A stretch of DNA of 64,000 nucleotides. Source: a virus. Its lineage: Duplodnaviria > Heunggongvirae > Uroviricota > Caudoviricetes. Below the pieces are notes generated by a model. It made no database searches. It had not been told where the DNA came from and saw only the letters and a list, made by a program, of their open reading frames with translations. The position numbers and the translations under genes were made by a program. The stretch is taken from the IMG/VR virus record IMGVR_UViG_3300006217_000016, positions 6,503 to 70,502 of that record; one strand, 5' to 3'. Of the stretch, positions 28,923 through 54,083 are shown piece after piece (positions within the stretch are counted from its first letter, which is position 1; each line of letters starts with the position of its first letter).

Positions 28923-28925
28923 ATA

Positions 28926-31343: not shown

Positions 31344-31348
31344 ATATT

Positions 31349-31434
31349 AGAGAGTGGTGGGAATCGAACCCACGCAGCGCATATCCGGTTGACAGGCATG
31401 TATCTGCCCCGCTCTGCCACTGAGCTACACTCTC
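31349..31434 (-). tRNA. Atypical tRNA (anticodon arm folds only with a 6-nt loop GATACA; about 20-nt unstructured variable region)
   Basis: Perfect acceptor GAGAGTG/CACTCTC. D-arm GCTCAGTGGCAGAGC. T-arm GTGGGTTCGATTCCCAC. No CCA. Anticodon not assignable. Confidence 0.45.
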
Positions 31435-36042: not shown

Positions 36043-36115
36043 TAGCGTGGACCGGGCTTGAACCGGCGACACACGGATTATCAATCCGCAGCTCTACCTA
36101 CTGAGCTACCACGCC
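36043..36115 (-). tRNA. tRNA-Ile (GAU)
   Basis: Acceptor GGCGTGG/CCACGCT. D-arm GCTCAGTAGGTAGAGC. Anticodon loop TTGATAA. T-loop TTCAAGC. No CCA encoded. Confidence 0.7.
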
Positions 36116-38990: not shown

Positions 38991-39754
38991 AACGTAACCT
39001 CCTAATAAGATTTTCTATGGGCAAGCCCATAATGAAGCCCTGGAACGAAGCCGCTCCAGGGCTCGATATAGGTTTGCACTCCCTCTGGTGACTTCTGCTC
39101 TGCGCTCAAGTCCACGGGACGTAAAGACGCCCGCACCACTTGTCGCAGTATTCACCGAAGTGCGCGGCATTTCAACCGCTCACCATTGGGAGAGAAAAAT
39201 TCACGTTATCATGCTATCAAATCCACTCCGGCCAACTATTCCGCTCGCTGTACTAACTCCCTTAGAGCCTTCCGGCGGCGATGTGCCACGCAACGCGCAA
39301 CCCTCCTTGAGAACTGCGACGCCTTTTAAGCATAGTCACAAAGCTGCTTTATAGCTGAGCCATCCTGAACCGTCAAGCACTTATCCACCCACACGTTTCC
39401 ATCACGTTTGCAGTTGGAGCGGAACCAACTGATTGCCGAGAACTCAATACTGCCCGCGTTCAGTACCCGCGCACTGGGAGCCTAACTCTCCCAATTTTTG
39501 GCTGGCCTTCTCTTGGGACGGTTGGAGCCGTCACATGTTGCAAGAGTACACTTCTTCTGCTGGCAGAAGTACCCCTTGAGCGAGCGTGTGATGCCCTCAA
39601 GGTGGCGCGTGGTATACCCCTCTGCATTTGCACAGGCTTGGGACTGTCCAGACAAGTGTAACTTGCCCGGGCTGCATTGGTATACCGCCGGGGGTGGGCG
39701 CGTGGTGTGGCGCGTGGGGTGTGGGGCGGGGTGTGCTTTTGTTCCCCCGTATAT

Positions 39755-39782
39755 ATGCACACGGCTGTCACCCCCCCCCCCC
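39755..39782. repeat. Direct repeat DR-L (ATGCACACGGCTGTCAC + C12) flanking the sigma-like gene
   Basis: Matches DR-R at 40759-40783. Confidence 0.55.
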
Positions 39783-39844: not shown

Positions 39845-40627
39845 TTACTTCTGGTTCTTGTTCATGCCGCCGCGCTTCCGCATGGTTGCCAGCGTTTCCG
39901 CGATATCGTCCGGGGTGTACCCAGCCGCCGCGAAAATTGCGCCGTCCTTGTCCAGTTCAACCGCCTTTTTCAGTACCCAAAAGTAGGCTTTTGCAAGGTT
40001 TTTGTAAACATTCTGGCGCGCTTTTCCTGTCTTTTCGGCGATATCCGCCGCGCTCATTTCCTGTTGATAGGACAGGGTGAACACTTCGACTTGAGCCGGG
40101 GAAAGCGTGGGGGCGGTTGCGTCAATGGCGCGGGCAATCAGACGGTCAAGGGCGGGGCATGTGGCGCGGGGGTAACGGGGCTGGACGTTGCACGCAACCC
40201 AGCCGGGGGTATACTCTTTCTCACTGTTGCGGTTTTGCTTCTGCTGATATGCGCGGATAGCGGAGAAAGCCGCGCTTTTCACCTGGTACATGTCCGCGCC
40301 GGGGTTGTCCGTCAGTGTGGCGATAATGGCAACGGTGGCTATGCTGGTGTAGTCCTCTTTATCCCACTGGCTGCGGTTGATGGGGTTCATCACGGCGTAG
40401 TTGTTCCGCCTCTCCCAGTTCTCGACGCTGGCAAGGGTGAATTTCGCCATATCTTGAATGGCTTCGGGGTTCTCCATGTCTACAAGGGGGTAAATGCGGA
40501 CGGTGGCGCGGGGGTACTTCTCATTAGCCGCCGTTACGGCGTCCTGAAGGGTTCCAGCGGTGAGAATTTCAAGGGCTTTTGCTGTCTTGTTTTCGCGGTC
40601 GATTGCACAAATTTGATACTTTTTCAT
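39845..40627 (-). CDS. Divergent sigma-70-family region-4-containing protein (putative phage sigma or transcription factor)
   Basis: C-terminal LSPAQVEVFTLSYQQEMSAADIAEKTGKARQNVYKNLAKA resembles a sigma region 4 HTH. RBS AGGGAG upstream. Confidence 0.45.
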   Translation of the reverse strand: MKKYQICAIDRENKTAKALEILTAGTLQDAVTAANEKYPRATVRIYPLVDMENPEAIQDMAKFTLASVENWERRNNYAVMNPINRSQWDKEDYTSIATVAIIATLTDNPGADMYQVKSAAFSAIRAYQQKQNRNSEKEYTPGWVACNVQPRYPRATCPALDRLIARAIDATAPTLSPAQVEVFTLSYQQEMSAADIAEKTGKARQNVYKNLAKAYFWVLKKAVELDKDGAIFAAAGYTPDDIAETLATMRKRGGMNKNQK

Positions 40628-40699: not shown

Positions 40700-40728
40700 A
40701 ATATACACCCCCGATTAAAGATTGTCAA
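40700..40728 (-). promoter_or_regulatory. Near-consensus sigma70 promoter for the sigma-like gene (TTGACA-N17-TATATT)
   Basis: Read on the minus strand: TTGACAATCTTTAATCGGGGGTGTATATT. Confidence 0.6.
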
Positions 40729-40758
40729 CACTTTTTTTTGAGGGGGTGTCAACAATGC

Positions 40759-40783
40759 TATGCACACGCTTGTCACCCCCCCC
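40759..40783. repeat. Direct repeat DR-R (TATGCACACGCTTGTCAC + C8)
   Basis: Matches DR-L. Lies within the divergent promoter region together with TGTCAAC/TGTCACC iteron-like motifs. Confidence 0.55.
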
Positions 40784-41110
40784 GGCGCGGTGTGTGTGCC
40801 GCCGGCCCGGCGTGGTGTCTATGTCACCTTTTCGCGCTATGTCCCATAGAGGGGGCTTGTTTTCCATATTTTGACGAAACGCCCCCGCAGCCCAGGCGCC
40901 CAGTTGGCTCATCTCCCATGGGTCACCAAAAAACTCACTCCGACCACAACACCTTGCGCCACAACACTCACAGCCGTTTTATCATCGGGGAGAATGTGTT
41001 GCTCACGCCATTCTTTATAAAGGATCGTCACAGATGATAAAACGGCGTCTCGCCAAAGTAGCTTGAAACGTGACTTTAAGGAGACAGATAATTTTCTCCG
41101 AAATTTGTGC

Positions 41111-41138
41111 TTGACATCTGGGGCGATTATGCTATAAT
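41111..41138 (+). promoter_or_regulatory. Consensus sigma70 promoter for the recombinase arm (TTGACA-N16-TATAAT)
   Basis: TTGACATCTGGGGCGATTATGCTATAAT, about 50 nt upstream of the int ATG, with RBS AGAGGGAGG. Confidence 0.7.
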
Positions 41139-41187
41139 AGTATCATAGTCAACAATCTTTTTTGAAGTATAGAGGGAGGCACCGTTC

Positions 41188-42021
41188 ATGGGCAAGGTTA
41201 TCAATGTAGACTTCACAGCGCGGAGTGCAGACGCAAACGCAGACGCAGTCATCGACGTTAAGGCAGTAGCTCAGTCCCGGAGGTTGCTCCAGGCTGGCCT
41301 GATCGCGCCGGCTGTCGAGGATACCAGTTACGAAGTAGCGGGGGAACATGCAAGCGAACCTATCAAGAACGTAGATGACATCTACGCCGTGTCTGAGTGG
41401 TTCATCACCAGAGGCCGGTATCGCGACAACATGCTCTTCATCGTTGGCATCAACTTCGGCCTGCGAGTCAGCGACCTGCTGACGCTGCGGTTCTCCCACC
41501 TGATCGACGAACAGTTCAGGTTCAAGACCACGTTCCCCATTCTGGAGAAGAAGACCCGGAACACCAGGAAGGTGAAGCGCAACCGCTACATCACCATCAA
41601 CGATGCCGTGGTGGATGCAGTCACGCTCTATCTGGAGAACACACCAGGCGTCAAGCTCAGCGACTTCATGTTCCGTGGTGAGAGCAACCGGTGCGGCAAG
41701 GACAACAACAAGGCCATGAGCCGGAAGTCTGCCGACCGGATCTTGAAGGAAGTCGGTGAGGCGCTCGGCCTCGGCATCCACATTGCTACCCACACGCTGC
41801 GCAAGACGTTCGCCTATCACCAGATGGTAATGAGCAACAACGACCCGCGCAAGCTCCTGCTTCTGCAGAAGATGTTCGGACACAGCACGTCCGCCCAGAC
41901 GCTCGACTACATCGGTATCACTGGTGAGGAGATCGAGGAGGCGTACATGCAGCTCAACCTGGGCGGGCGCCGCTCGCTCCGGCTGATGGACAGCACCATC
42001 GTGGAGCAGCCGGCAGGCTGA
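41188..42021 (+). CDS. Tyrosine recombinase/integrase (phage integrase family)
   Basis: Box I GLRVSDLLTLRFSHL. Box II HTLRKTFA...FGHSTSAQTLDYIGIT with the catalytic Tyr. Confidence 0.8.
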   Translation: MGKVINVDFTARSADANADAVIDVKAVAQSRRLLQAGLIAPAVEDTSYEVAGEHASEPIKNVDDIYAVSEWFITRGRYRDNMLFIVGINFGLRVSDLLTLRFSHLIDEQFRFKTTFPILEKKTRNTRKVKRNRYITINDAVVDAVTLYLENTPGVKLSDFMFRGESNRCGKDNNKAMSRKSADRILKEVGEALGLGIHIATHTLRKTFAYHQMVMSNNDPRKLLLLQKMFGHSTSAQTLDYIGITGEEIEEAYMQLNLGGRRSLRLMDSTIVEQPAG

Positions 42022-42105
42022 TGCGCCACCTGCACCTTGACAACAGAATAGGATACTACAGTCCTTAGCTCCCTCGTTTGAAGGCTCTATAGCTACAAGT
42101 GTTCC

Positions 42106-42200
42106 TACAGAGATTCTCTTTAAGGGTTACCCCCTGAAATAATCCATTTCAAGGGCCGAAATTTTCGTTTTACCACCTGGGTGGTGGTAAACGGTGGTAA
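42106..42200. repeat. Repeat R2 (TACAGAGATTCTCTTTAAGGGTTACCCCCTGAAA ... CCACCTGGGTGGTGGTAAACGGTGGTAAAGG)
   Basis: Second copy of R1. Lies immediately upstream of the gene at 42215. Confidence 0.55.
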
Positions 42201-42214
42201 AGGAGGTTTTGCTT

Positions 42215-42595
42215 ATGAGTGTGAACTGGAAGATGGACGAGACAGCGCTGGGCCGCGAGACGTTCGCCGAGGACTTCGACGACTACGGGCGCGGGGAAGA
42301 CCACAAGGTTTCTATCGGCGACGAGGTCGAAGCCACAGACAAATACGGGCGTACCCACGCCGGGGTGGTGGTGGGGATCATCCGCGACATCAACCGCGAG
42401 CCGGTATGTTATAAGGTATGGAATGAGGAGCTGGACGACTTCGATTTCATCCAGGCGTCAGACAACATCCTGTGTGAGCCGTGCGGCTCGTCGCAGTGGT
42501 CGCTGGAGCGCATCGGGTATGTGCAGCATGGGAACGATGCAGACCGGTGCTGGTTCTACCTGAACAAGCGGACGGGGGATGTGATCTATTGGTAA
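42215..42595 (+). CDS. Hypothetical protein
   Basis: ATG with AGGAGG 8 nt upstream. The track ORF starts earlier at an alternative codon. Confidence 0.5.
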   Translation: MSVNWKMDETALGRETFAEDFDDYGRGEDHKVSIGDEVEATDKYGRTHAGVVVGIIRDINREPVCYKVWNEELDDFDFIQASDNILCEPCGSSQWSLERIGYVQHGNDADRCWFYLNKRTGDVIYW

Positions 42596-42612
42596 AGGTA
42601 TGTGACGCCATC

Positions 42613-43815
42613 ATGGGAACCGGCAAGAGTTCCGCAGCCATTACATACATGAACGACCACCCCGAGAAGAAGTTCATCTACATCACACCATACCTTGAAG
42701 AAGCGACACGCATCGCCACATCATGTTCCCGGCTCCACTTCTTCGAGCCCAAGAAGAAAACGGAGTTCAATGGGTCAAAGACCCTACATACGATTGACCT
42801 CGTGAAGCGAGGGGAGAACATCGCTACCACCCATCAGGCGTTCCGGTTCTATCCACAGGAGCTTCTGGAACTGGTGAGTGGGCAGGGCTACACGTTAATC
42901 ATCGACGAGAACGTAGACGTGCTGGAAACGCTGGACGAAGACCCGGCAGATATCCAGATGGCTATCGACGCCGGGTACATTTCCGAAATCAGACCGGACG
43001 TTTTCCACCTCGTCAAAGACGTATACGATGGGAAGACGCACCGGGATCTGTTCCGAGTCCTGCGGACACGCGACCTGATTCGGATGACTGGCGAGTCCAA
43101 GGAGTCTTTCTTCTACTGGCAGCTCCCGCCTGAACTCATCACCTCGTTCGACGAGGTATACATCCTGACGTACCTGTTTGAGGGACAGAGCCTGCACCAC
43201 TTCCTCGAAATGTACGACATCCCATACCAGTTCGTTGGGGTGGAGAAAACGGGCGACAGCGAGTTTAGGTTCAGCAGCTCGACAGAATACGTGCCGGACT
43301 ACGTCCATAACATCCACGACATGATTGAGATCGTGGACGACCCCAAGCTGAATGATGTCGGGGAGGACGACTTCTCCCTGTCCATGAGCTGGTTCGACAA
43401 GGAGAGTTCTGACACATCCAGGTTGAAGAACAACCTTTATAATTTCTTCCGCTATATGTGCGGGGCAGAGGCCGCAGACAGAATGTGGTCTACATATCGT
43501 GACGCGAAGTCGAAGATCCAAGGCAAGGGATACACCAACGGGTTTATTCCGTTCAACAAGAAAGCGACGAATGAATATAGGAATCGCACCGCCGTTGCGT
43601 ACTGCGTCAACCTATATATGAACGTCGGACAAAAACTGTTCTACCAAAACAACGGCGTGGAGGTAGACGAGGACGCATACGCCTTATCCATTATGGTACA
43701 GTGGATTTGGCGAAGCGCAATCCGTGATGGGCAGAAGATCGTACTGTATGTTCCAAGCAAACGGATGCGCGGTCTGCTTACCAACTGGATGGAGGAGGTG
43801 AGCAGACGTGGATAA
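42613..43815 (+). CDS. P-loop NTPase (Walker A GTGKSS, Walker B LIIDEN), function unknown
   Basis: Start at MGTGKSS with AAAGG upstream. The longer ORF overlaps the previous gene. Confidence 0.55.
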   Translation: MGTGKSSAAITYMNDHPEKKFIYITPYLEEATRIATSCSRLHFFEPKKKTEFNGSKTLHTIDLVKRGENIATTHQAFRFYPQELLELVSGQGYTLIIDENVDVLETLDEDPADIQMAIDAGYISEIRPDVFHLVKDVYDGKTHRDLFRVLRTRDLIRMTGESKESFFYWQLPPELITSFDEVYILTYLFEGQSLHHFLEMYDIPYQFVGVEKTGDSEFRFSSSTEYVPDYVHNIHDMIEIVDDPKLNDVGEDDFSLSMSWFDKESSDTSRLKNNLYNFFRYMCGAEAADRMWSTYRDAKSKIQGKGYTNGFIPFNKKATNEYRNRTAVAYCVNLYMNVGQKLFYQNNGVEVDEDAYALSIMVQWIWRSAIRDGQKIVLYVPSKRMRGLLTNWMEEVSRRG

Positions 43816-43981
43816 GTGTGACAGATGTTTATGGGCAGGGTGCTGTCGTACAGCCATGGATGGATGCCCGGACTTTACAACGGTGGACGAGAACGAATAC
43901 ATCGAGGAGTTCCACAGGGTTCGGTCAGAGGAACTGCTTCCGTATTGGATGATATATATCGGACAATACAGCGACGACTAA
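43808..43981 (+). CDS. Small Cys-rich protein (57 aa; alternative frame to track ORF 43825..44019)
   Basis: GTG start 10 nt after GGAGGAGG. Protein-like sequence ...ENEYIEEFHRVRSEELLPYWMIYIGQYSDD. The two overlapping frames cannot both be real. Confidence 0.25.
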   Translation: MDKCDRCLWAGCCRTAMDGCPDFTTVDENEYIEEFHRVRSEELLPYWMIYIGQYSDD

Positions 43982-44015: not shown

Positions 44016-46781
44016 GTGAGCATTATTTCCAAACAACAGTCTTGCCAGAAGTTTATCCTCAAACTTCATAGCGCACGCTTACGCAAGGCAAGGTGGAATT
44101 TGACGCTCCCTATCTCCGAGGCGCGGAGAAACGATGAAGTCATTTCCCTCAGCGACAGCCAGATGCTGCGCTTCATCGATAAGCTGAATGGCATCGAGAA
44201 CGCAGACGCGATTGCGAAAGAGATTAAGAGCGAAATAAAAATGCTCAGAAAACAAATAAATTCTCTACAAAATCGCAAGAAAATTAAAAGTTTATACGAG
44301 AAATTAGATGAAATACAATACAAACCAGATTACATGTGTTTGATCATCGACAAAGAGAAAGACTATTGGAGAGCTTGCAAGGGCTTCAAGATCAACGGGG
44401 TGAAGTACGTTAGGCTGCTGGGTACCAACGGCGGCATCAAGAACTCGACCATCGTGTTCGTCAGCGATAGGATGGCGCCTGAGCTGCGCCGGCGTATTGA
44501 CAACGGGAGGGACAAGAGCAAGGAGCTGGTACCGGCCAAGCTGGAAGCGTATCAGGCGCTGGCCTGCAGCGGCTCCATCCCGGTGTCCTACCCCAACGGC
44601 ATCGCCGTGGTCGAGGACTGCGTGACGCACTTCAAGTCCGACGTCATCAACATCGAGGACTCGGACGGTGAACCGAAGATGTGGTTCCAGGCCGGGGCGG
44701 ATGTGGAGCTCGACGAGTCGGACGGGTACGGCATCATGCTCCCGTCTCTGGCGAGAAGGTGGTCGGAAGAACTTCAGCTCGACTACATGGTAAGCGGAGT
44801 CAACACCCGTCTGTCCTTTGAGAAGGGGATGGTCTTCACCTTCGACTTCCTGGAGTTTGCCGACGAGGTGGCCGGCACCCGCATCATCAAAGATGCGTGG
44901 GGTAACGATGTGGATCTCTCAAACGTGGAGCTGATACTCACCACGTCCATGGTCAAGCTGTGGGACAGCTACGCGAGCTGTGAGGACTACCTGCGCAACT
45001 GCAAGGAGAACGGGTATACCTTCGGCATCACAAAGTCCTGCCCAAAGGTTTTGGAGAATGAGCGCAGTACCAACTACCAGTTCCTCCAGGTGTACGACCT
45101 GGACGACGCACAGGTCGAGCAGCTCATCCAGCCGACCATGCAGGAGATCCACGACATCCTGGCGCTCGACTGGAGGAAGGCCGCTCTGTTCCTCAAGGGC
45201 GTAGGGCTGAACGAGGAGAACATCGACTTCATCGAGTCGGACTTCGCGAAGGCCATCATGGTGGAGCCCAGGATGATGGACGACCCATTCGTCACGAAGA
45301 AGATCTACGGTATGATAAAGAAGCGCATCATCGACGCGAAGATCGGCGTCATCAAAGTGCGCGGCAACTACTCCATCATCTCCGGCGACCCATACGCGCT
45401 GTGTCAGAGCATCTTCGGTCTGGAAGTCACCGGGCTGCTGAAGGCCGGCGAGATCTACAACAAGTATTGGTTAGACCACGGTGTAGACAACGTGGTGTGC
45501 TTCCGCGCTCCTATGACCTGTGCCAACAACGTAATCAAGATGCACGTCAACGGAAGTGAGGAGGCACAGCACTGGTACAGATATATGGTGTCATGTTCGC
45601 TGCTGAATGCCTGGGACACCACGGCGGCTGCGCTGAACGGCGCGGACAAAGACGGTGATCTGATTTTCACAACGGACAATGAGATACTGGTGTCGTGCCA
45701 CAGGCAGCTCCCCGCGCTCATGTGTGCCCAGAGGAAAGCGACGAAGTGCGTGCCGACGCAGGAGGACATCATCAACTCGAACATCGCCAGTTTCGGCGAT
45801 GACATCGGGAAGATCACGAACCACATCACATCTATGTTCGATGTGATATCCATGTATGAGAAGGGCAGCCCGGAGTACGAGGCGCTCGACTACCGTATCA
45901 AGTGTGGGCAGAAGTTCCAGCAGGACTCCATCGACCGGGCCAAGGGCATCATCTCAAAGCCAATGCCAAAGAGCTGGTATGACAGGGCGTATGTCAGGAA
46001 CGCATATGGCGACGATGAAGAGAAGGTACAGTTCGCCATGAAGATCGTTGCGGACAAGAAGCCATACTTCATGCGGTACATCTACCCGACGCTGATGCGC
46101 CAGTACACTACATACGTTTCCAACACCAACAAGAAGGCGCTTCGCGAGTTCCGCCTGACCATTGACGAGCTGATAGAGAAGGAGCGCGCAGGCGGTCTGT
46201 CTGACGAAGAACGGGAGTTCCTACACTACTATCGTATCAAGACGCCGGTGGGAGTACATGACTGTGTGATGAACAGAATATGCCGGCGCTTCGAGGACGA
46301 GTTCGATGGGTACATCACCCGCCACAACTCCGACGTCGAGTTCGACTATACGATTATGAAGAGCGGCGTGGAGTATACACAGACCCAGTACAACGCAATC
46401 CTTCGGTTGTACGAAGCGTACAACAAGCGGATGCAGGACTATATGCAGTACGCAAAGAAGGAGCGCCTGGATGAAGACGAGAACATGAACCACAGGTACG
46501 TTATGGTTCAGGACTTCCGCAGAGAGTGCCAGATTGTTTGCTCCAATAAAAGTCAGTTGTGTGACATACTGTTGGATATATGTTATCAGAAAGAAGGGTC
46601 AAAGCAGTTTGTCTGGGACATGGCAAGCGATGAAATCATCGACGCTTTGGTCAGGAACAACGGCGGCTATATTTCCTTCCCTGCCCGCGACGACAACGGA
46701 GACGTTTTGTTTGGCGGCGAACGGTTCTCGTTCGCAAGAAAGCAGATTGGAGGGGAAGCAGATGAATATAGTGCTGAATGA
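44016..46781 (+). CDS. Large protein with a beta-prime-like double-psi beta-barrel catalytic motif: candidate YonO-like single-subunit two-barrel RNA polymerase
   Basis: VVCFRAPMTCANNVIKMHV ... ALNGADKDGDLIFTT parallels RNAP beta-prime NRAPTLHRL ... AYNADFDGDQMAVH. 921 aa. GTG start. Confidence 0.5.
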   Translation: MSIISKQQSCQKFILKLHSARLRKARWNLTLPISEARRNDEVISLSDSQMLRFIDKLNGIENADAIAKEIKSEIKMLRKQINSLQNRKKIKSLYEKLDEIQYKPDYMCLIIDKEKDYWRACKGFKINGVKYVRLLGTNGGIKNSTIVFVSDRMAPELRRRIDNGRDKSKELVPAKLEAYQALACSGSIPVSYPNGIAVVEDCVTHFKSDVINIEDSDGEPKMWFQAGADVELDESDGYGIMLPSLARRWSEELQLDYMVSGVNTRLSFEKGMVFTFDFLEFADEVAGTRIIKDAWGNDVDLSNVELILTTSMVKLWDSYASCEDYLRNCKENGYTFGITKSCPKVLENERSTNYQFLQVYDLDDAQVEQLIQPTMQEIHDILALDWRKAALFLKGVGLNEENIDFIESDFAKAIMVEPRMMDDPFVTKKIYGMIKKRIIDAKIGVIKVRGNYSIISGDPYALCQSIFGLEVTGLLKAGEIYNKYWLDHGVDNVVCFRAPMTCANNVIKMHVNGSEEAQHWYRYMVSCSLLNAWDTTAAALNGADKDGDLIFTTDNEILVSCHRQLPALMCAQRKATKCVPTQEDIINSNIASFGDDIGKITNHITSMFDVISMYEKGSPEYEALDYRIKCGQKFQQDSIDRAKGIISKPMPKSWYDRAYVRNAYGDDEEKVQFAMKIVADKKPYFMRYIYPTLMRQYTTYVSNTNKKALREFRLTIDELIEKERAGGLSDEEREFLHYYRIKTPVGVHDCVMNRICRRFEDEFDGYITRHNSDVEFDYTIMKSGVEYTQTQYNAILRLYEAYNKRMQDYMQYAKKERLDEDENMNHRYVMVQDFRRECQIVCSNKSQLCDILLDICYQKEGSKQFVWDMASDEIIDALVRNNGGYISFPARDDNGDVLFGGERFSFARKQIGGEADEYSAE

Positions 46782-47547
46782 GTCGGAGTATGTGGAGGGA
46801 ATCCTCCGTGACCATCAACTCGGGCCGAAGCCTACGGAGACTCTGGTGCGTGTGGCTCGGTACTATTCGACGGTAGATATGATGAAGAAGTCAGACGTAC
46901 GCGCCGAGCTTGAGAAGTTCATGCTCCGGTGCGACCCATCCATCAACTTGGTCAAGTGGCAGGACACGTTGGACAGAATCATCAAGGCCGCCGGCAAGTA
47001 TCCGATGGTCGATATCGAGAGCGTCCCTATCACCGAGAAAGAGATTGCCCTGTGCGACGGCCTGTCCAAGGATACCAAGCGGCGCGACCTCTCGATGTAT
47101 AAGAGCTTCTCGGATAAGCCGATGCGCCGCCTGCTGTTCACCCTGATTTGTCTGGCGAAATACTCGGACCTTGTGAACAGTAAGAACGGCGGGTGGGTCA
47201 ACCGGACAGACAAAGAGATCTTCAAGCTGGCTAACGTGGTCACGCCGGTCAAGCGCCAGTCCCTCATGTTGAACGACCTGCGTGAGATGGGACATATCAA
47301 GTTCAGCAGGAAGGTGGACAACGTGAACATCAACGTCCAGTGCCTTGACCCGGGTGGCGCGGTGGCGCTTGAGATTCGTGACTTCCGCAACCTTGGCTAT
47401 CAGTACATGCGCCATTGCGGAGAGGCATACATAGAGTGCGAACAATGCGGTCTGGTAATCAAGCAGCGCAACAATTCACAGAAATATTGCCCCGACTGTG
47501 CCATCGACGTGAACAGGCAAAGGTCTATTGATAGACGGAAAAGTTGA
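46762..47547 (+). CDS. Hypothetical protein with C-terminal zinc ribbon (CEQCG...CPDC)
   Basis: ATG with GGAGGGGAAG upstream, overlapping the end of the 921-aa gene. Confidence 0.5.
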   Translation: MNIVLNESEYVEGILRDHQLGPKPTETLVRVARYYSTVDMMKKSDVRAELEKFMLRCDPSINLVKWQDTLDRIIKAAGKYPMVDIESVPITEKEIALCDGLSKDTKRRDLSMYKSFSDKPMRRLLFTLICLAKYSDLVNSKNGGWVNRTDKEIFKLANVVTPVKRQSLMLNDLREMGHIKFSRKVDNVNINVQCLDPGGAVALEIRDFRNLGYQYMRHCGEAYIECEQCGLVIKQRNNSQKYCPDCAIDVNRQRSIDRRKS

Positions 47548-47577
47548 ACTTTTTTGAATATGTTTGAAACAGAAACA

Positions 47578-47630
47578 GCCTGTAAGTATTCAGTCCAAGA
47601 TACTTACAGGCTACTGTGCAGTATTTCTAT
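47578..47630 (+). terminator. Rho-independent terminator (13-bp perfect stem AGCCTGTAAGTAT/ATACTTACAGGCT)
   Basis: Hairpin followed by a T-rich stretch after the stop at 47547. Confidence 0.6.
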
Positions 47631-47867
47631 ATATAGAGAGAAAAGGCATAGAAAAATCACATTATATACTATAGGTTGAAAGGGTGTTCATTTTTGGTTG
47701 CTATCAGCGCACGAGAAAAACAGATCATTGCGGAGAGATGTCCGATGGTGCATATCCGTCGGACGGTCAAACAGAAGAGTAACAGGCATCGGTACTACAT
47801 GGAAGAGAGCAGGGAAGCCATGCGTATTCTGAGGTCGCTCCGCAGGTCGGCATAAGAGGAGGACTAT

Positions 47868-49070
47868 ATGGACAAGCTGACGAAGAGGCCAAACGAAACA
47901 GATTTGGCGTATCATAAGCGTCTGATCTATGGGAAGTTGGTCGATGGGACGCTTGCCGACGAGGACTACTCAGAACTGGCGCCATATGTCTATGGTAGAG
48001 AATACAGTACGGATGTTGCACGCAGGATGATGTACGGCAGCAAGAGAACGCTTGAGCTGTTAAGCGAGAGCGCCGAGCAGTCTATCACATCCGACGATAT
48101 CCTGAGCGAGCTGGACGCGAAGAGGATTGAGCTGCAGAAGGACAAGCAGAAGATGCTTGACCAGAGGTCTGCGCTCAACAAACTGATCCGTGAACGCGCA
48201 CGTCAGGAAGAGATCAATGAAATCCTGATGAGCGCGGTGGAGAGGGGTAATCTTCCATCGCTTGATTACCATGGCCCGAGTGAGGGTGTCACATTGTCAT
48301 CCGACAACGATATCCTGGTAAGTCTCAATGACATTCACTATGGGGCGAAGGTGAACAACTATTGGAACAAGTACGACTCCGATATCTGTCGCGATATGAT
48401 GCGCCGGTATCTTGACCGTATCATTGAGATCGGTCGTTTACATAGGAGCGAGAATTGCATCGTGTGGGAGAATGGAGACGCGATCTCCGGCAACATCCAC
48501 TACTCGATTGCAGTGACCAACAAAGAGAACGTAATACAGCAGGTCATTGGTGTGTCTGAGCTGATTGCAGAGTTCCTTGCTGAACTGAGCAAACACTTTG
48601 CCAGTGTGCAGTTTGTGAGTGTGTCAGGCAATCACTCCAGACTTGACGTGAAAGACCGTGCCTTACAGTCTGAGCGCATGGACGATCTGGTGGAATGGTA
48701 TCTGGCTGCACGCCTGCAGAACTTTGACAACGTCTTGATTGGCGTTGGCGAGAAGGTAGACGCCACCATGTATCTGATTGATGTGCGTGGTAAGACGTAC
48801 TGTGGTATCCACGGTGATTACGACGGAAGTGCCACGAAGGTGCAGGCGCTTCAGACAATGGCTCGCAGGCCGCTGTACGCGGTTCTGAGCGGGCATCTTC
48901 ACCACAACATGATGGATGAAGTCCAGGGGATCAAGACGGTCATGGCCGGCAGCTTCCTCGGGATGGATGATTTTTGTGTCAGTAAACGAATATACGGCCG
49001 CCCGGAGCAGATGGTATGTATCTGCGACAACAGCGGCATCAGGTGTTCGTACAATATTGATCTCAGCTAA
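47868..49070 (+). CDS. Calcineurin-like metallophosphoesterase (SbcD-like phosphoesterase domain with an N-terminal extension)
   Basis: Motifs SLNDIHYG, SGNHS, GHLHHN. RBS AGAGGAGG. Confidence 0.65.
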   Translation: MDKLTKRPNETDLAYHKRLIYGKLVDGTLADEDYSELAPYVYGREYSTDVARRMMYGSKRTLELLSESAEQSITSDDILSELDAKRIELQKDKQKMLDQRSALNKLIRERARQEEINEILMSAVERGNLPSLDYHGPSEGVTLSSDNDILVSLNDIHYGAKVNNYWNKYDSDICRDMMRRYLDRIIEIGRLHRSENCIVWENGDAISGNIHYSIAVTNKENVIQQVIGVSELIAEFLAELSKHFASVQFVSVSGNHSRLDVKDRALQSERMDDLVEWYLAARLQNFDNVLIGVGEKVDATMYLIDVRGKTYCGIHGDYDGSATKVQALQTMARRPLYAVLSGHLHHNMMDEVQGIKTVMAGSFLGMDDFCVSKRIYGRPEQMVCICDNSGIRCSYNIDLS

Positions 49071-49076
49071 AGCGAC

Positions 49077-49110
49077 CGGGAGGGGTGAACAGCCCCTCCC
49101 GCTATTTTTT
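49077..49110 (+). terminator. Rho-independent terminator (CGGGAGGGG-TGAACAG-CCCCTCCCG then ATTTTTTAT)
   Basis: Perfect GC stem followed by a T-run after the stop at 49070. Confidence 0.7.
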
Positions 49111-49114
49111 ATAT

Positions 49115-49188
49115 CGCAGGATCGTCTAAAGGTAGGATATTTGGTTCATGCCCAAAAGATTAGAGTTCGACTCTCTATCCTGCAACCA
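49115..49188 (+). tRNA. tRNA-Met (CAU), possibly initiator-like (C1-A72 mismatch)
   Basis: Acceptor CGCAGGA/TCCTGCA. Anticodon arm TTTGG-TTCATGC-CCAAA. T-arm TAGAGTTCGACTCTCTA. CCA encoded. D-arm is poor. Confidence 0.45.
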
Positions 49189-49217
49189 CAACTATTTTTG
49201 ATTGAAAGGGTGAACAT

Positions 49218-49508
49218 ATGGTAACAAGGGACGAGTTCATCGAGCGCCTGTCGCAGAAGGGTTATACCAAGCGCGACGCCGGCATCGTGATGGACGATTT
49301 TATCAGAACATTGGAGGAGGCTCTGGTCGGCGGCGAATCCGTAATGTTCCACGGGTTCGGGACATTTGAAATCCGTGAGCGCGCCGAGCGTGAGAGCTCC
49401 AATCCACAGACGAAGGAACGAATTGTAATCCCCTCTTATCGTGCCGCGCACTTCACGCCGGGCAAGAAGCTGAAGCGTGAAATCAAAGAGGGCTTGGTTC
49501 GGGATTGA
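49218..49508 (+). CDS. HU/IHF-family DNA-binding protein
   Basis: GFGTFEIRERAERESSNPQTKERIVIPSYRAAHFTPGKKLK matches the HU beta-arm region. Confidence 0.8.
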   Translation: MVTRDEFIERLSQKGYTKRDAGIVMDDFIRTLEEALVGGESVMFHGFGTFEIRERAERESSNPQTKERIVIPSYRAAHFTPGKKLKREIKEGLVRD

Positions 49509-49519
49509 GGTGATACGCA

Positions 49520-50581
49520 ATGCCGAAGCAGAGTAAGATTGCAAGCACAAGGCCAAACGCGGCGGCTCCGGTTAAACAAGGCCCGGATCGGTTTTACTGT
49601 ACCAGGTGTGAGCGTTCGTTCACAAAGCAGAAGAGTAACTTCCCTGGTTCGCAGAGTCCGCTGTGGAGGAACAACAACGGGTATATACCTGTGTGCCGGC
49701 ATTGCGTCGATGAAATATATAATCATTATAAGGAGACGCTGGGCGACGAGAAGGCCGCCATCCGGCGTATATGCCTGAAGTTCGATATCTACTGGAGCGA
49801 GAAGATCTACAAGATGTTGGTTAAGACTTGCACTACGAACTCTCGCGTCTTGAGCTACATAAGCAAGTCGAACCTGTACCAGTTTGTCGGGAAGACATTT
49901 GACGACACACTGGACGAAGAATATGCGGCGGAAGCAGATAAGACCGCTTGGCAGCTCCGGCAAGGCGATGCCGACAGTTATGTGGATGGTCAGGATGATC
50001 CATCCATAGAACAGATAGACCAGGAAGTCATTGACTTCTGGGGACCCGGTATGACGCCAACCATGTATATGGAGTTGGAGCAGCGCAAGGTTTATTGGAT
50101 GAGCCACTTGCCTGCCGGCGTTGAAGTCGGTATCGGGCTTGAGGCTTTGATCCGCCAGATCTGCAGTATGGAGGTTGATATCAACCGAGACCGTGCTGCG
50201 GGTAAGTCGGTTGATAAGGCGGTCGGTACACTGAACACTTTGATCGGGAGCGCTATGCTCAAGCCGAGCCAGAAATCTGACAGTTCGGACAGCTCCCTGG
50301 AGAAGACTCCGTTCGGAGTGTGGATCAAGAAGTGGGAAGATAAGAGACCGATCCCAGAGCCCGACCCGGATATGAAGGATGTAGATGGTATCGTCAGATA
50401 CGTTGAGATCTGGATGAAGGGGCATCTGTCAAAGATGCTTGGGCTCAAGAACGCATACTCTGCTCTGTACGATAAAGAGATTGCGAAGAAGCGCGTGGAG
50501 CGCCCAGAGTTTGACGACGAGGATGACGAGACCTTCTTCTCTGACGTGTTCGGAGAGGAGGGTCAGGATGACGAGAGCTGA
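49520..50581 (+). CDS. Zinc-ribbon protein upstream of the large terminase (candidate small terminase subunit/DNA-binding protein)
   Basis: Position immediately 5' of TerL with an overlapping stop. CTRCERSF...CRHC motifs. RBS GAGGTGA. Confidence 0.3.
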   Translation: MPKQSKIASTRPNAAAPVKQGPDRFYCTRCERSFTKQKSNFPGSQSPLWRNNNGYIPVCRHCVDEIYNHYKETLGDEKAAIRRICLKFDIYWSEKIYKMLVKTCTTNSRVLSYISKSNLYQFVGKTFDDTLDEEYAAEADKTAWQLRQGDADSYVDGQDDPSIEQIDQEVIDFWGPGMTPTMYMELEQRKVYWMSHLPAGVEVGIGLEALIRQICSMEVDINRDRAAGKSVDKAVGTLNTLIGSAMLKPSQKSDSSDSSLEKTPFGVWIKKWEDKRPIPEPDPDMKDVDGIVRYVEIWMKGHLSKMLGLKNAYSALYDKEIAKKRVERPEFDDEDDETFFSDVFGEEGQDDES

Positions 50582-52313
50582 GAAAATCATGCAAGGCGCA
50601 GCGGTGTACTGCGCCTTTTATCGTGCAAATCCAGCGAGGTTTGCCAAAGACTATCTGCATCTTGACCTGAGACTCTTCCAGAAGATCGTCATCACGATGA
50701 TGATCCTATGCTCGAACGCTGTGTTCATCGGCGCTCGTGGTATTGGTAAGACATTCATCAGCGCGGTGTTCTGTGTTATCCGCTGTATCCTGTGGCCCGG
50801 TACCAAGGTGTGTATTGCATCAGGCACGAGGGGACAGGCCATCAATGTCTTGGAAAAGATTATGTTGGAACTCAAACCAAACTCACCGGAGTTGGCTGCT
50901 GAGATCGACATGAAAGAAACCAAGATAAACGGTACGGACGCGAAGATCGTTTTCCTGAACGGGTCATATATCAAGGTCGTCACCGCGTCCGACTCCAGCC
51001 GTGGTAACCGCGCAAACGTTCTAATCCTTGATGAGTTCCGTCTGATCTCCAAGGATGTCATTGATACGATTCTGCGCAAGTTCCTGACACAGCGGCGTAT
51101 GCCAAAGTATGAGGAGCTGACCAAGGCGGAGCGCCGTGCGGAGTATGACAAAGAAAAGAACATGACCGCGTACCTGAGTTCTGCGTATTACTCCGACCAC
51201 TGGAGTTATACAAAGTGCCAGGATACGTTCAAGGCCATGCTGGATGAATCGAAGTCTCAGTTTGTGTGCAGCCTTCCATATCAGCTTTCTATCGAGGAAG
51301 GCTTGCTGGATGCTGATACTGTTCTGGACGAAATGTCGGAGACAGACTTCTCTGATATCAAGTTCTCCATGGAGTATGAGGCGCTGTTCTACGGCAGCTC
51401 TGAGGATGCGTTCTTTGATTTCGCATCTGTCTCCAAGAACCGGCGTATCAAGTACCCTATGTTCCCGGACAGGTCATCCGGGAAACTTATGTCCAACGCG
51501 AACATCAGCATACCCCCAAAGAGACCTGGCGAGAAACGTATCCTCTCTGTCGATATCGCTCTGATGAAGAGCAAGAAGAGAAAGAAGAAAAACGACGCCA
51601 CGGCAATCTTTGTGAATCAGATGCTGCCAACAAAGGCAGGCAGGTATGTGAGTAACATCGTGTACGCCGATGGCAATGAGGGTATGCACACTGCAGACCA
51701 GGCATTGCTCGTCCGCAAGTTGTTCGACGAGTATGAATGCGACTATCTGGTTATCGACGCGAACGGCGTAGGCGCCGGCGTTGCTGACCTGCTGCTCCGC
51801 GATATACCAGACCCGGTGACCGGAGATATCTACCCGGCTATATCATGCTGCAACAACCAGGACATGGCAGACCGGTGTATATCAAAAGACGCCAAGAAAG
51901 TAATCTGGGCAATCAAGGCAACGTCGAAGTTTAACTCCGACATTGCGTATCTTCTGCGCGAGGGGTTCAGCAGCGGCCGCGTTCGTCTTCTGGACACAGA
52001 GATCAACGGCGAGACGAGTATGAATGAGCTGCGCGGATATTCGTCACTCAACCCGTCTGAGCGCACGTTTATGTCTCTGCCGTATGTCCACACCACTCTT
52101 CTGATCGACGAGCTGACAAAGCTCCAGCATGAAGAGAAGGATGGGCTCGTCAGAGTATACGAGCGCTCCGGGAAGCGCAAGGATAGATACTCCAGTCTGG
52201 CATATAACTACTGGGTCGCCTGCCAAGTCGAGACAAAGATCCGTAAGCGGAGTGTGTCGGCACAGTCAGGGAGCGGCCCTCAGTTTATGTTCCGGGCACC
52301 AAAAGTCAAGTAA
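50568..52313 (+). CDS. terL: Terminase large subunit
   Basis: Walker A GARGIGKT, Walker B LILDEF, and a C-terminal nuclease-like region. Start at MTRAEK with GGAGAGGAGGG upstream. Confidence 0.75.
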   Translation: MTRAEKIMQGAAVYCAFYRANPARFAKDYLHLDLRLFQKIVITMMILCSNAVFIGARGIGKTFISAVFCVIRCILWPGTKVCIASGTRGQAINVLEKIMLELKPNSPELAAEIDMKETKINGTDAKIVFLNGSYIKVVTASDSSRGNRANVLILDEFRLISKDVIDTILRKFLTQRRMPKYEELTKAERRAEYDKEKNMTAYLSSAYYSDHWSYTKCQDTFKAMLDESKSQFVCSLPYQLSIEEGLLDADTVLDEMSETDFSDIKFSMEYEALFYGSSEDAFFDFASVSKNRRIKYPMFPDRSSGKLMSNANISIPPKRPGEKRILSVDIALMKSKKRKKKNDATAIFVNQMLPTKAGRYVSNIVYADGNEGMHTADQALLVRKLFDEYECDYLVIDANGVGAGVADLLLRDIPDPVTGDIYPAISCCNNQDMADRCISKDAKKVIWAIKATSKFNSDIAYLLREGFSSGRVRLLDTEINGETSMNELRGYSSLNPSERTFMSLPYVHTTLLIDELTKLQHEEKDGLVRVYERSGKRKDRYSSLAYNYWVACQVETKIRKRSVSAQSGSGPQFMFRAPKVK

Positions 52314-52322
52314 AGGAGGTGA

Positions 52323-53849
52323 ATGAGTTTGGCAAGAAAAATTGTCGATACAAGCGAAGACAAGACAGAAGTATATAAGGAACCGTTGTCGTTTGACGCG
52401 GATGGTTTGATTCGTATCCCGCAAAGGTTCGCGGCGCTCAATCGTTTGATTATGCGGGACTTGAATGGCAGGCTGCGCAGTCCTACCTTCTATAAATACA
52501 CGAAGGATCAGATTTCACAGTACCTGTCTAACCCATATCGCTACCAGAAGAATCTGCGTAACGCAGCGATCTATCTGTATGCGGCGAGTTCCCATTTCCG
52601 CCGTTTGATCCAGTATTTTGTTGCCCTGTCCGATTTGGCATATGTCGTGTCTCCGTATCGGATCGATACGAGTACGGCGAAGCAATCCATGCTGAGGAAA
52701 CAGTACAAGCGTACTCTCAACATGCTTTCGGCTATGGACATCAAGAACCAGTTCCCGAAGATCCTCACGGTATGTTTGCGCGAGGATGTCTTCTTCGGAA
52801 CAATGTGGGTCACCAACGACAACATCACGATCCAGCAGCTCCCGTCTGACTTCTGCGAAATCGCAGTCGTTGAGGGGAACGTGCCAAATGTGTCATTCAA
52901 CTTCTCGTATTTTGACACGAACCATCAGTATCTTGAGATGTATCCGAAGGAGTTCCAGGATAAGTACGAGCTGTATAAGAGTGACATGACGAAGATGAAG
53001 TGGCAGGAACTTGACGCACCCAACTCATTTGCCGTGAAGTGTAACAACGATATCCTCGACTACGCGATCCCCCCGTTCGTAGGTATCTTCCGTGAGATCT
53101 ACGACCTGGAGGATTACCGAAGCCTGAAGATGACCAAGACAGAACTGGAGAACTATGCGCTCCTGGTCATGAAACTTGGTATCAATAAAGAAGGCGAGTG
53201 GGAGATGGACTTCGACAAGGCGCGAGATTTCTACTCCAACCTTGCTGACGTACTCCCGGAGGAAGTCGGTGCAGTTCTGTCACCAATGCCGATTGATAAG
53301 ATCGGCTTTGAGAAATCGAACACCAGAGACACAGACACAATCGCTGAGGCGGAACAGAATCTGTTTACTGCTGCCGGTGTATCTACTCTCCTGTTCAATA
53401 ATGACAAGGCTTCCAGTAATGCCCTGCTGCTTTCCATCAAGGCAGACCAGGCGCTTACATATGGCATCGTCAAGAGCATTGAGGAAGTGGTCAACCGTTT
53501 CATTCACAGCTACCCGTACGGGAAAAACTTCAGAGTGACTTTCCTGGATTGTTCTCCATATAACCGCAAAGAAATGGGAGAGCAGTATTTGAAAGCGGCG
53601 CAGTATGGGTTCCCGACTCTGTCATACTTCTGCGCATCGCAGGGGTTGTCGCAGGCAGACATGGACGGCATGGACTTCCTGGAGAACGAGATTCTCAAGT
53701 TGAAGGATCGGTTCAGGCCATTGCTGAGTTCTGCCACCGTCAGCTCCGCAGACGGCGCCGGCAGGCCAACAAAGGATGACGGCGACCTATCGGATTCTGG
53801 CGAGTCATCCAGAGAGCATGACGACGGGGACGACAGCCAGCTTGAATGA
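52323..53849 (+). CDS. Portal protein (by position and size)
   Basis: 508 aa immediately after TerL. RBS AAAGGAGG. Acidic C-terminus. Confidence 0.55.
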   Translation: MSLARKIVDTSEDKTEVYKEPLSFDADGLIRIPQRFAALNRLIMRDLNGRLRSPTFYKYTKDQISQYLSNPYRYQKNLRNAAIYLYAASSHFRRLIQYFVALSDLAYVVSPYRIDTSTAKQSMLRKQYKRTLNMLSAMDIKNQFPKILTVCLREDVFFGTMWVTNDNITIQQLPSDFCEIAVVEGNVPNVSFNFSYFDTNHQYLEMYPKEFQDKYELYKSDMTKMKWQELDAPNSFAVKCNNDILDYAIPPFVGIFREIYDLEDYRSLKMTKTELENYALLVMKLGINKEGEWEMDFDKARDFYSNLADVLPEEVGAVLSPMPIDKIGFEKSNTRDTDTIAEAEQNLFTAAGVSTLLFNNDKASSNALLLSIKADQALTYGIVKSIEEVVNRFIHSYPYGKNFRVTFLDCSPYNRKEMGEQYLKAAQYGFPTLSYFCASQGLSQADMDGMDFLENEILKLKDRFRPLLSSATVSSADGAGRPTKDDGDLSDSGESSREHDDGDDSQLE

Positions 53850-53863
53850 AAGGAAGATACGGA

Positions 53864-54055
53864 ATGAACTTTATATATGTAATGAGTGTGAAGGACAAGA
53901 ACAAGATGGTGTCCCTTGGGTATGACCTGATCAGGGAGGACACCAGGAACAGCATGTGGGTATTCAAGAATAAGGACACAACCACATTTGCCTGCGAGGA
54001 TGAGATATCCGGCGCGGGCATTAAATTTGTGCTTTCCAACACGCTCACATTCTGA
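53864..54055 (+). CDS. Small hypothetical protein
   Basis: ATG preceded by AAAGGAAG. Confidence 0.3.
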   Translation: MNFIYVMSVKDKNKMVSLGYDLIREDTRNSMWVFKNKDTTTFACEDEISGAGIKFVLSNTLTF

Positions 54056-54083
54056 AGCAGCAAAGAGCTGCGTTGGGAGGTAG

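Follow-up and report, generated by a model that had tools for sequence, protein, structure and literature searches.

The phage DNA analyzed here (a stretch of 64,000 nucleotides, hereafter the window) encodes a 921-aa protein that is very likely the phage's own DNA-dependent, single-chain, two-barrel RNA polymerase (RNAP) of the YonO family, which would read the phage late genes. By its homology to YonO, its catalytic residues, its predicted fold, and the yonO-like position of its gene, the protein is, as judged computationally, a member of an already known kind of phage enzyme. The same homology, the eight catalytic residues, the fold, and synteny support a sequence-only reading of this DNA that had proposed a YonO-like two-barrel RNAP.

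The polymerase gene and its relatives

The polymerase ORF (44016-46781, + strand) is intact and begins with a GTG codon at 44016. Both motifs that the sequence-only reading had pointed to in a 921-aa protein, FRAPMTCANN (residues 496-505, nt 45501-45530, + strand) and NGADKDGD (residues 541-548, nt 45636-45659, + strand), were found as described. On near-identical contigs, gene callers chose a rival start codon that gives a protein of 893 aa. We considered the 921-aa start preferable, since residues 11-30 are conserved in a 60-sequence alignment, with K16, S19, R21, and L22 being nearly invariant, and are confidently modeled by AlphaFold (pLDDT 88-93).

A BLASTP comparison with YonO gave E=5e-28 at 25% identity over 506 columns (residues 122-609), pairing DKDGD with DNDGD and FRAPM with LRSPH of YonO, and no BLAST alignment to YonO was obtained for the C-terminal 310 residues. 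By tblastn (E=1e-21 to YonO), matches were found in 26 Bacillus phages, most of which are SPbeta-type. The protein also matched the Pfam RdRP model PF05183 at 42.1 bits, compared with a gathering cutoff of 23.8, with residues 112-605 spanning model positions 55-502 of 582; precomputed PF05183 matches are likewise present on many of its homologs. Homologous sequences form 1,829 clusters at 50% identity, 99%-identical copies occur in 229 indexed collection blocks of metagenome assemblies, and YonO-like polymerases are abundant in gut Clostridia phages.

In relatives, a group I intron and a GIY-YIG endonuclease are found at the most conserved motifs of the polymerase gene. Introns and homing endonucleases at conserved motifs are typical of essential phage genes, and the insertions at the catalytic motifs hint that the polymerase gene is essential. 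In Clostridium phage c-st, the polymerase is split into CST179 and CST178, with no Rfam intron being found in the gap, and the genes of Enterocloster phages lie in 2-3 pieces.

Catalytic residues and predicted structure

Profile alignment to the QDE-1 structure 2j7n indicated that all eight universal two-barrel residues are present, namely D236, R265, K270, R497, P499, D544, D546, and D548. D236 (44721-44723), R265 (44808-44810), and K270 (44823-44825) lie on the first barrel and align on QDE-1 D709, R738, and K743. The second barrel carries R497 and P499 (45504-45512) and the predicted Mg-binding triad D544-K-D546-G-D548 (45645-45659; all + strand), which aligns on DYDGD. The universal residues in QDE-1 are D709, R738, K743, R962, P964, D1007, D1009, and D1011 (PMC2919709). 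All eight are invariant in an 11-sequence alignment that includes YonO, with identity down to 22%, and also when 60 sequences from two subfamilies, only ~30% identical to each other, are aligned. The motif residues R497, P499, D544, D546, and D548, on whose conservation in homologs the earlier proposal had been staked, are thus invariant down to 22% identity, and the two motifs did not arise by chance. The further suggestion that this region mirrors beta-prime holds for the motif, while the spacing from the Arg to the first Asp agrees only roughly, at 47 residues here compared with about 35 in E. coli beta'; the QDE-1 spacing is 45. In the mechanism that we propose, Mg-A would be bound by D544, D546, and D548, with D236 of the first barrel contributing to Mg-B; contacts to the incoming NTP and to the RNA 3' end would come from R265, K270, and R497.

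Structure prediction, suggested earlier as a check for two double-psi barrel (DPBB) domains, recovered both barrels in the AlphaFold (AF2) model (pLDDT 88.5). The first, beta/Rpb2-like barrel (residues ~188-310, 44577-44945, + strand) was recognized by its strand pattern, and the second, beta'/Rpb1-like barrel spans residues ~447-570 (45354-45725, + strand). Among solved structures, the model best matched plant RDR2 and QDE-1, across ~600-870 residues; it also matched crAss-like gp66, P23-45-type gp96, and minimal DPBB proteins, with a weaker structural match to beta'/Rpb1. Beyond the barrel, the clamp, bridge helix and trigger loop, funnel, and switch regions of Rpb1/beta' were not recognized. 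A single-protein sequence search of the PDB returned a spurious EF-hand (secretagogin) as its sole match, and a family profile reached QDE-1 weakly (E=0.065) with informative alignments; no solved YonO-family structure was found in the PDB copy searched.

Both the model and the alignment indicate that the C-terminus of the polymerase is a beta-hairpin domain without Cys pairs, and a fused C-terminal zinc ribbon like that on YonO is not found on the polymerase chain here. The fused ribbon is a trait of the type protein YonO and not necessarily family-wide.

Genomic context of the polymerase gene

The upstream part of the polymerase operon (41111-43981, + strand) begins with a host-type sigma-A promoter at 41111-41138 (+ strand; TTGACA and TATAAT with TG, separated by 16 nt; 12/12 in the promoter scan). 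It encodes the tyrosine recombinase (41188-42021, PF00589) that the sequence-only reading had placed near the polymerase gene, followed by a 126-aa ORF, a YonV-like P-loop protein (42589-43815; YonV_C family on near-identical contigs), and a Cys-rich 57-aa ORF (43808-43981), all on the + strand. A phrog_2467 match was found in this part of the operon, and its gene order is repeated in relatives. The divergent sigma-like gene previously noted is likewise present (39845-40627, - strand; Sigma70_r4_2, E=5e-9), scoring 33.7 bits against the ECF sigma model, under the 42.9 cutoff. We rejected this gene as a source of a polymerase cofactor: it encodes an ECF-type fragment, lies on the opposite strand, and finds no counterpart in the polymerase, where sigma-binding modules were not detectable.

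Downstream, a conserved, basic 53-aa ORF (47694-47855, + strand) occupies the yonK position and would lead the proposed late transcript; it shows codon-wise conservation over five loci, gene calls on related contigs include it, and no family match was found for it. The SPbeta-type late module that follows (47868-57224, + strand; PHROG matches) is the presumed target of the polymerase. It encodes a YonJ-like metallophosphoesterase (47868-49070), HU (49218-49508; Pfam), a YonG-like protein (49520-50581), the large terminase (about 50568-52313), the portal (about 52329-53849), and YonD-like (about 54090-55667) and YonB-like (56211-57224) proteins, all on the + strand, with a tRNA at 49115-49185; the YonG-, YonD-, and YonB-like assignments derive from Pfam families on 99%-identical contigs. 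The polymerase gene thus lies at the head of the late module, with homologs from YonV_C to YonB ordered as in SPbeta.

In the scheme that we favor, host RNAP would read the operon of recombinase, YonV-like ATPase, Cys-rich, polymerase, and partner genes from the promoter at 41111-41138. The polymerase, probably acting with a translationally coupled 261-aa winged-helix/zinc-ribbon partner, would then start at a phage-specific site within the element at 47548-47693 and transcribe the rightward late operon, from the yonK-position ORF through the YonJ-like, HU, YonG-like, terminase, and portal genes to the head and tail genes.

A conserved partner protein

The partner gene (46762-47547, + strand; phrog_30716) encodes 261 aa, and its first 20 nt overlap the end of the polymerase ORF. 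The AF2 model of the partner (pLDDT 90.9) predicts a helical bundle at the N-terminus, a winged-helix-like domain (residues ~119-192, nt 47116-47337, + strand), and a Cys4 zinc ribbon (C226, C229, C243, and C246; nt 47437-47499, + strand), the four Cys of which are invariant among 51 sequences. The whole chain had no significant structural neighbor, with local winged-helix matches only, and no Pfam or NCBIfam family was found. Residues 797-831 of YonO are homologous to this zinc ribbon (hhalign 88%, E=3e-6; also the c-st annotation). A partner homolog lies directly 3' of the polymerase gene in every relative fetched except the SPbeta-type YonO phages, and the copy in Thomasclavelia phage TR-TP1 is divergent and lacks the zinc ribbon. 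The partner may be an initiation or DNA-binding cofactor of the polymerase; our literature searches returned no description of a YonO promoter or a YonO partner.

A more elaborate scheme, which we hold only tentatively, is a two-protein holoenzyme with the partner as the promoter-specificity factor for YonO-type polymerases. The partner would recognize a three-part promoter, consisting of the upstream block, the structured hairpin, and a TTATGArGG-type core, and the tail of YonO would be a remnant of this factor, the zinc ribbon alone surviving in SPbeta YonO as a fused tail.

A candidate late promoter

A conserved three-part non-coding element (47548-47693, + strand) separates the polymerase cassette from the late genes, matching the position of P_YonO in SPbeta, and is a candidate late promoter. 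All three parts are on the + strand: TGTTTGAAAC forms the upstream block (47562-47571), a hairpin of 13 bp follows (47577-47612), and the downstream block (47611-47646) includes ACTGTGCAGTATTTCTAT at 47613-47630. The element is single-copy per locus, and its conservation was seen in alignments of 5 and 14 loci. A second match to ACTGTGCAGTATTTCTAT, with 3 mismatches, at 55551 was judged to be chance, being in a coding region and without a hairpin. The idea that the R1/R2 repeats are promoters was not borne out for the late region, where a repeat search of 38-64 kb turned up no promoter-like element that recurs.

The element has a fold z-score of -3.97. RNAalifold returned no consensus hairpin because the stems lie in registers one column apart, and support for the hairpin was taken instead from an explicit per-register pair count. 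By this count the hairpin covaries among loci, each position being occupied by several kinds of base pair, and pairing reaches 81% in register compared with 29-48% when shifted. A leave-one-out nhmmer profile of the downstream element, from which the window was withheld, recovered only its training loci and missed the window, SPbeta, c-st, Enterocloster phage PMBT24, and TR-TP1 loci; the element is therefore too brief and too diverged to support a claim across clades.

SPbeta-type phages contain a related motif, TCATTTATGArGGT, in exactly two copies (expected 0.03; on the SPbeta side, TCATTTATGAGGGT at L001 9037-9050), one of which falls between the primers with which the YonO start site was mapped. 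The YonO start is given as B. subtilis coordinate 2225998; on the fetched phage loci, the primer positions alone were placed. The polymerases of Bacillus phage BUCT082 and SPbeta-type phages are 25% identical, whereas their promoter regions are ~98% identical, with the similarity starting exactly at the hairpin element. This natural swap supports a promoter logic shared across the family.

Alternatively, the element could be an intrinsic terminator of the polymerase operon combined with an ordinary host sigma-A extended -10 promoter, with the phage polymerase starting elsewhere or needing no fixed promoter at the element; we regard this as a serious if somewhat doubtful possibility. A T-run (TTTTTGATG) follows the hairpin in most relatives, but the hairpin in the window lacks a U-tract. 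The downstream block resembles an extended -10 (TGnTATTAT), yet conservation continues well past the -10 hexamer, in upstream TTGTTTGAAA and downstream GAAAGGAAA blocks. While the failure of the leave-one-out profile to retrieve the diverged copy in the window also fits a terminator, the two occurrences of TCATTTATGArGGT in SPbeta-type phages, one of them between the start-site primers, argue against this alternative.

Alternative functions of the polymerase

The 921-aa protein could also be an RNA-dependent RNAP that copies phage or host transcripts, for example making dsRNA or antisense RNA. Its Pfam match is to an RdRP family, its nearest solved folds are RDR2 and QDE-1, and its relatives are named "RNA dependent RNA polymerase," although these names come from the Pfam family name rather than from experiments. 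QDE-1 can also use DNA templates, and the structural matches include solved QDE-1/DNA-template complexes. Since the protein matches the RdRP model but YonO does not, and since its closest structural matches are RNA-dependent enzymes, template preference is not readable from sequence. However, YonO, the sole characterized bacterial or phage member of this branch, is a strictly DNA-dependent RNAP that strongly prefers DNA templates and whose 3D>3N mutant is dead (PMC5467207), and the conserved place of the gene at the head of a dsDNA phage late structural operon fits a transcriptase. We consider an RNA-dependent function quite unlikely and infer that the polymerase prefers DNA templates and is specific for late genes.

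A replication enzyme, whether a two-barrel primase or a primer-synthesizing polymerase, is very improbable: the neighbors are homologs of SPbeta YonV and YonJ from the late/packaging module rather than a replisome, no replication genes adjoin the polymerase within the window (part of the genome), the predicted fold resembles RNA polymerases far more than PolD, and YonO is processive and late-gene specific (PMC5467207). We give almost no credence to the idea of a relic that retains the fold but is decaying or non-catalytic, for which nothing specific speaks beyond the frequent decay of prophage genes, given the intact ORF, the eight retained catalytic residues, and strong conservation across thousands of sequences.

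Comparison with known polymerases

Among the known relatives of cellular RNA polymerases, the YonO-type enzymes are the simplest, and they may be similar to a single-chain ancestor of these polymerases; most members of this family, so common in gut Clostridia phages, are mislabeled as RNA-dependent polymerases. The conserved partner and the hairpin-containing element offer two leads on how a minimal polymerase finds its start site, and YonO-type enzymes, which are probably rifampicin-insensitive, could become compact orthogonal transcription tools.

The sole YonO-type enzyme studied is SPbeta YonO (Forrest et al. 2017, PMC5467207), which initiates upstream of yonK to transcribe the SPbeta late operon (PMC5467207). 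Similar to YonO, the polymerase in the window has both barrels on one chain, with the Asp triad and R-x-P motif aligning, and its gene is just 5' of the HU, yonK, yonJ, yonG, terminase, and portal late module; like SPbeta, its source is a temperate Firmicutes phage. In contrast with YonO, it is 921 aa rather than 839 aa long and passes the Pfam RdRP threshold, which YonO does not reach. The CxxCG...KYCxxC zinc ribbon that forms the C-terminus of YonO itself is found here on the separate 261-aa partner, which also has helical and winged-helix-like domains.

A polymerase of ~830-925 aa followed by a partner of ~210-280 aa is shared with BUCT082, c-st, PMBT24, CB457P1 (also an Enterocloster phage), and Thomasclavelia phages, whose polymerases are 24-41% identical to that of the window over nearly their full length and have the same late-module context. 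The annotations of these two-gene relatives read hypothetical or "RNA-dependent RNA polymerase," and several are interrupted, whereas the gene in the window is intact.

QDE-1 and RDR2 share the eight catalytic residues at nearly identical spacing and the DbDGD motif, but they are only 12-15% identical to the polymerase and are eukaryotic RNA-silencing enzymes that copy RNA, in contrast with the phage late-operon context and expected DNA template here. Sequence similarity to other single-chain two-barrel RNAPs of phages, namely phi14:2 gp66, P23-45 gp96, P74 gp62, and P32 gp64, was not detectable; gp66 and gp96 act early and are either packaged in the virion or fused to large structural proteins, whereas the polymerase gene lies in a middle operon and its product is expected to act late. 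With beta'/beta (Rpb1/Rpb2), the polymerase has in common the pair of double-psi barrels and the catalytic constellation of eight residues.

A two-barrel polymerase of the YonO-like branch

The sequence-only reading had proposed a YonO-like two-barrel RNA polymerase at 44016-46781 (+), and its ORF was borne out, running from a GTG at 44016 to a stop at 46781 (921 aa), with FRAPMTCANN at residues 496-505 and NGADKDGD at residues 541-548. Gene callers place the start 28 codons downstream (893 aa) on 99%-identical metagenomic contigs; the 921-aa start is better, since residues 1-30 are conserved among homologs and confidently modelled. The sole Pfam match of the 921-aa protein was to PF05183 'RdRP', the cellular QDE-1/RDR family (42.1 bits, gathering score 23.8, residues 112-605), and PHROGs matches were only to families of unknown function, one spanning residues 4-546 and another 568-917. 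Searching phage genomes by tblastn matched 41 records, including Clostridium phage c-st (40% identity), six Enterocloster phages (39%), Bacillus phage BUCT082 (30%, full length), Thomasclavelia phages (24%), and 26 Bacillus phages, mostly SPbeta-type (26% over residues 122-609), with the match in Goe12 and Goe13 bearing the annotation 'yonO: DNA-directed RNA polymerase'. Direct BLASTP against YonO of prophage SPbeta gave E=5e-28 and aligned DKDGD with DNDGD and FRAPM with LRSPH. The family comprises more than 5,000 proteins in a 90% clustered collection and 1,829 clusters at 50% identity with E<=1e-3, 579 of them at E<=1e-30.

Ruprich-Robert and Thuriaux listed eight residues as invariant across all two-barrel polymerases, which in QDE-1 are D709, R738, K743, R962, P964, D1007, D1009, and D1011 (PMC2919709). 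When a profile of 60 family members was aligned to the QDE-1 chain, D236, R265, and K270 of the window protein fell at identical spacing on D709, R738, and K743, and D544, D546, and D548 fell on the DYDGD triad. The R-x-P motif corresponds to R497 and P499, 47 residues ahead of the triad (45 in QDE-1). All eight residues are invariant in an 11-sequence alignment that includes YonO and reaches down to 22% identity, and likewise in the 60-sequence alignment, whose two subfamilies are ~30% identical to one another, so the catalytic motif proposed from sequence is conserved in homologs.

AlphaFold2 on the 60-sequence alignment predicted the expected two-barrel (DPBB) fold (mean pLDDT 88.5, pTM 0.83), with barrel boundaries being read from the model's secondary-structure string rather than from coordinates. 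Foldseek against the PDB matched the model to maize RDR2 (E=5e-18, TM 0.50 over 873 columns), to QDE-1 and Arabidopsis RDR2 (E 1e-13 to 1e-16), to the phage P32 gp64 RNAP (E=1.7e-5), and to beta'/Rpb1 (E about 1e-2). Taken together, all sequence and fold evidence places the window protein in the two-barrel superfamily and its YonO-like/PF05183 branch. The suggested likeness to RNAP beta-prime holds for the barrels, with no beta' homology beyond them, and the term 'RNA-dependent RNA polymerase' in databases is probably a misnomer taken over from the Pfam name.

A partner protein carrying the zinc ribbon

The polymerase stop codon lies within a 20-nt overlap with a partner ORF at 46762-47547 (+; 261 aa, phrog_30716), a homolog of which is the next gene after the polymerase in all fetched long-type relatives; the copy in Thomasclavelia phage TR-TP1 is divergent and without the zinc ribbon. 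The C-terminal motif of the partner, C..CG..IK..SN.QKYC..CA, aligns to YonO residues 797-831 (BLASTP E=1e-3; hhalign 88%, E=3e-6), its four cysteines are invariant in 51 homologs, and the equivalent c-st gene had already been named 'YonO C-ter only' by its annotators. The partner model (pLDDT 90.9) comprises a four-helix N-domain, a helix-turn-helix with a beta-hairpin that resembles a winged helix, the zinc ribbon, and a terminal helix. For the whole chain of this model, Foldseek returned no significant match, and the best local matches were winged-helix DNA binders, such as Fur/PerR, RbkR, MarR, and ORC2. Because the ribbon aligns to the YonO tail and the local matches are to winged helices, the module fused in YonO is a separate, larger, and probably DNA-binding protein in the window. 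We propose a role for it as an initiation cofactor, at somewhat less than even odds.

Genomic context and host

One cassette recurs on contigs ranging from near-identical to more distant and reads, in order, tyrosine recombinase, 126-aa ORF, YonV_C P-loop protein, small Cys-rich ORF, polymerase, a protein of 250-261 aa whose ORF overlaps the polymerase stop, small basic ORF, YonJ-like metallophosphoesterase, HU, YonG, large terminase, portal, YonD, and YonB. This is also the order around yonO in SPbeta. Just ahead of the polymerase, the conserved 57-aa Cys-rich ORF (43808-43981, +), which overlaps the YonV-like P-loop gene at its stop codon, may be part of the polymerase cassette; a small ORF (53-68 aa) occupies this position in all relatives examined.

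A sigma-A-type promoter with TG (12/12 match) lies at 41111-41138, upstream of the recombinase. The sign of the GC skew flips near 40-42 kb of the window, and therefore both the polymerase operon and the late genes are read rightward out of a divergent control region. The sigma-like gene (39845-40627, -) lies between the two copies of a 25-nt direct repeat (39754-39778 and 40759-40783; TATGCACACGnnTGTCACCCCCCCC, 92% identical). This repeat is close to the divergent promoters at 40700-41138 and may be the operator pair of a lysis-lysogeny or early-middle switch.

The host is probably a gut Clostridia lineage, since Acutalibacteraceae, Oscillospiraceae, and Ruminococcus MAGs and one Intestinimonas genome contain close relatives. 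Two contigs of this Clostridia-type phage lineage were binned in Bacteroidota MAGs (L014, Prevotella; L020, Alistipes), probably by mis-binning, which is a caution for assigning hosts.

Proposed late transcription and a candidate promoter

YonO is a strictly DNA-dependent, highly processive RNAP that requires its Asp triad. Its target is the SPbeta late operon, where it starts transcription upstream of yonK, with its promoter and any cofactors unknown in that study (PMC5467207). Homology, fold, catalytic residues, and synteny all point to the window protein as most likely being the enzyme that transcribes the phage's late genes. Host polymerase would express it, and it would then act on the operon starting after 47548. 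Within this presumed operon, a strong intrinsic-terminator-like hairpin (10 bp, 8 GC, then a T-run) lies just after the YonJ-like gene and a tRNA gene comes directly behind it (49077-49185, +, for the two together); a phage polymerase that is processive and insensitive to pausing might transcribe through this hairpin.

In the non-coding stretch at 47548-47693, between the polymerase cassette and the late genes, the three closest relatives have in common a 13-bp hairpin (47577-47612), which shows compensatory changes, and ACTGTGCAGTATTTCTAT after it, and the region outfolds 200/200 shuffles (z = -3.97). An ungapped alignment of 14 loci (polymerase identity 57-85%) resolved this element, present once per locus, into an upstream TTGTTTGAAA-like block, the hairpin, and a downstream block with the consensus TtTGatG..tAT.ATGaaaGGaAa. 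In register, 81% of the hairpin positions pair, a value somewhat inflated because the register was picked per sequence; shifted registers pair at 29-48%, and a single position shows up to six pair types. The downstream block is non-coding, since a stop codon directly follows its ATG in several loci. A profile of the element built without the window did not retrieve the window's diverged copy.

SPbeta-type loci carry exactly two copies of a related motif, TCATTTATGArGGT (expected 0.03), each preceded by a small hairpin, and one copy falls between the published primers with which the YonO start site was mapped. The BUCT082 polymerase is of the two-gene type and just 25% identical to YonO, and yet the intergenic region of this phage is ~98% identical to the Goe12 yonN-yonK region (7455-7775 of the BUCT082 locus vs 8840-9160 of the Goe12 locus), with the similarity starting exactly at the TTGATTA-hairpin. 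The pattern resembles a natural exchange of polymerases on a single putative promoter. The tripartite conservation, hairpin pairing, SPbeta-type motif, and BUCT082/Goe12 similarity together make the element a reasonable candidate late promoter, in an argument from short motifs. A serious rival, which we hold possible though below even, reads the same element as a terminator with a host extended -10 promoter behind it.

Insertions in relatives and other genes

The window's polymerase gene is intact, while those of relatives are interrupted at the most conserved motifs. One relative carries a group I intron (L023 3667-3998, 88 bits), and another an insert (L020 3625-4814) encoding a GIY-YIG endonuclease (ORF 3853-4566), directly after ...QQNAI within the invariant Q635-I639-D640 helix. 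Many polymerase clusters and PHROG families stop at ~residue 546 or begin at ~552, beside DxDGD; the c-st polymerase is likewise split there (L004 7678-8045), with no intron match in Rfam. The large terminase gene of a 75%-identical relative (L010 14546-16766) is interrupted by a GIY-YIG endonuclease gene as well, and this relative has an additional tyrosine recombinase between its YonJ-like and HU genes. Homing elements are frequent in the late module.

Elsewhere, the window has a tmRNA gene (18155-18573, 96 bits) inside a tRNA-gene cluster (17598-18911, -) and further tRNAs at 28840-29012, 31271-31434, and 36043-36115, for a total of 12 tRNAs. A reverse-transcriptase gene (21644-22783, -; Pfam RVT_1 E=3e-17; phrog_2825) is possibly part of a diversity-generating retroelement or defence element. 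An auxiliary NAD-salvage gene encodes nicotinamide phosphoribosyltransferase (12246-13772, -; phrog_448, E=1e-156), with radical-SAM/Fe-S proteins nearby (9781-10701 and 29591-30427).

Comparison with known enzymes

The window protein differs from YonO in length and is just 25% identical to it, and the zinc ribbon that is fused to the polymerase in YonO is on a separate protein in the window. Because counterparts in Firmicutes prophages, including that of 'Bacteroides capillosus', have been known since 2003-2010 (PMC5467207, PMC2919709), the window polymerase adds a member to a known enzyme type.
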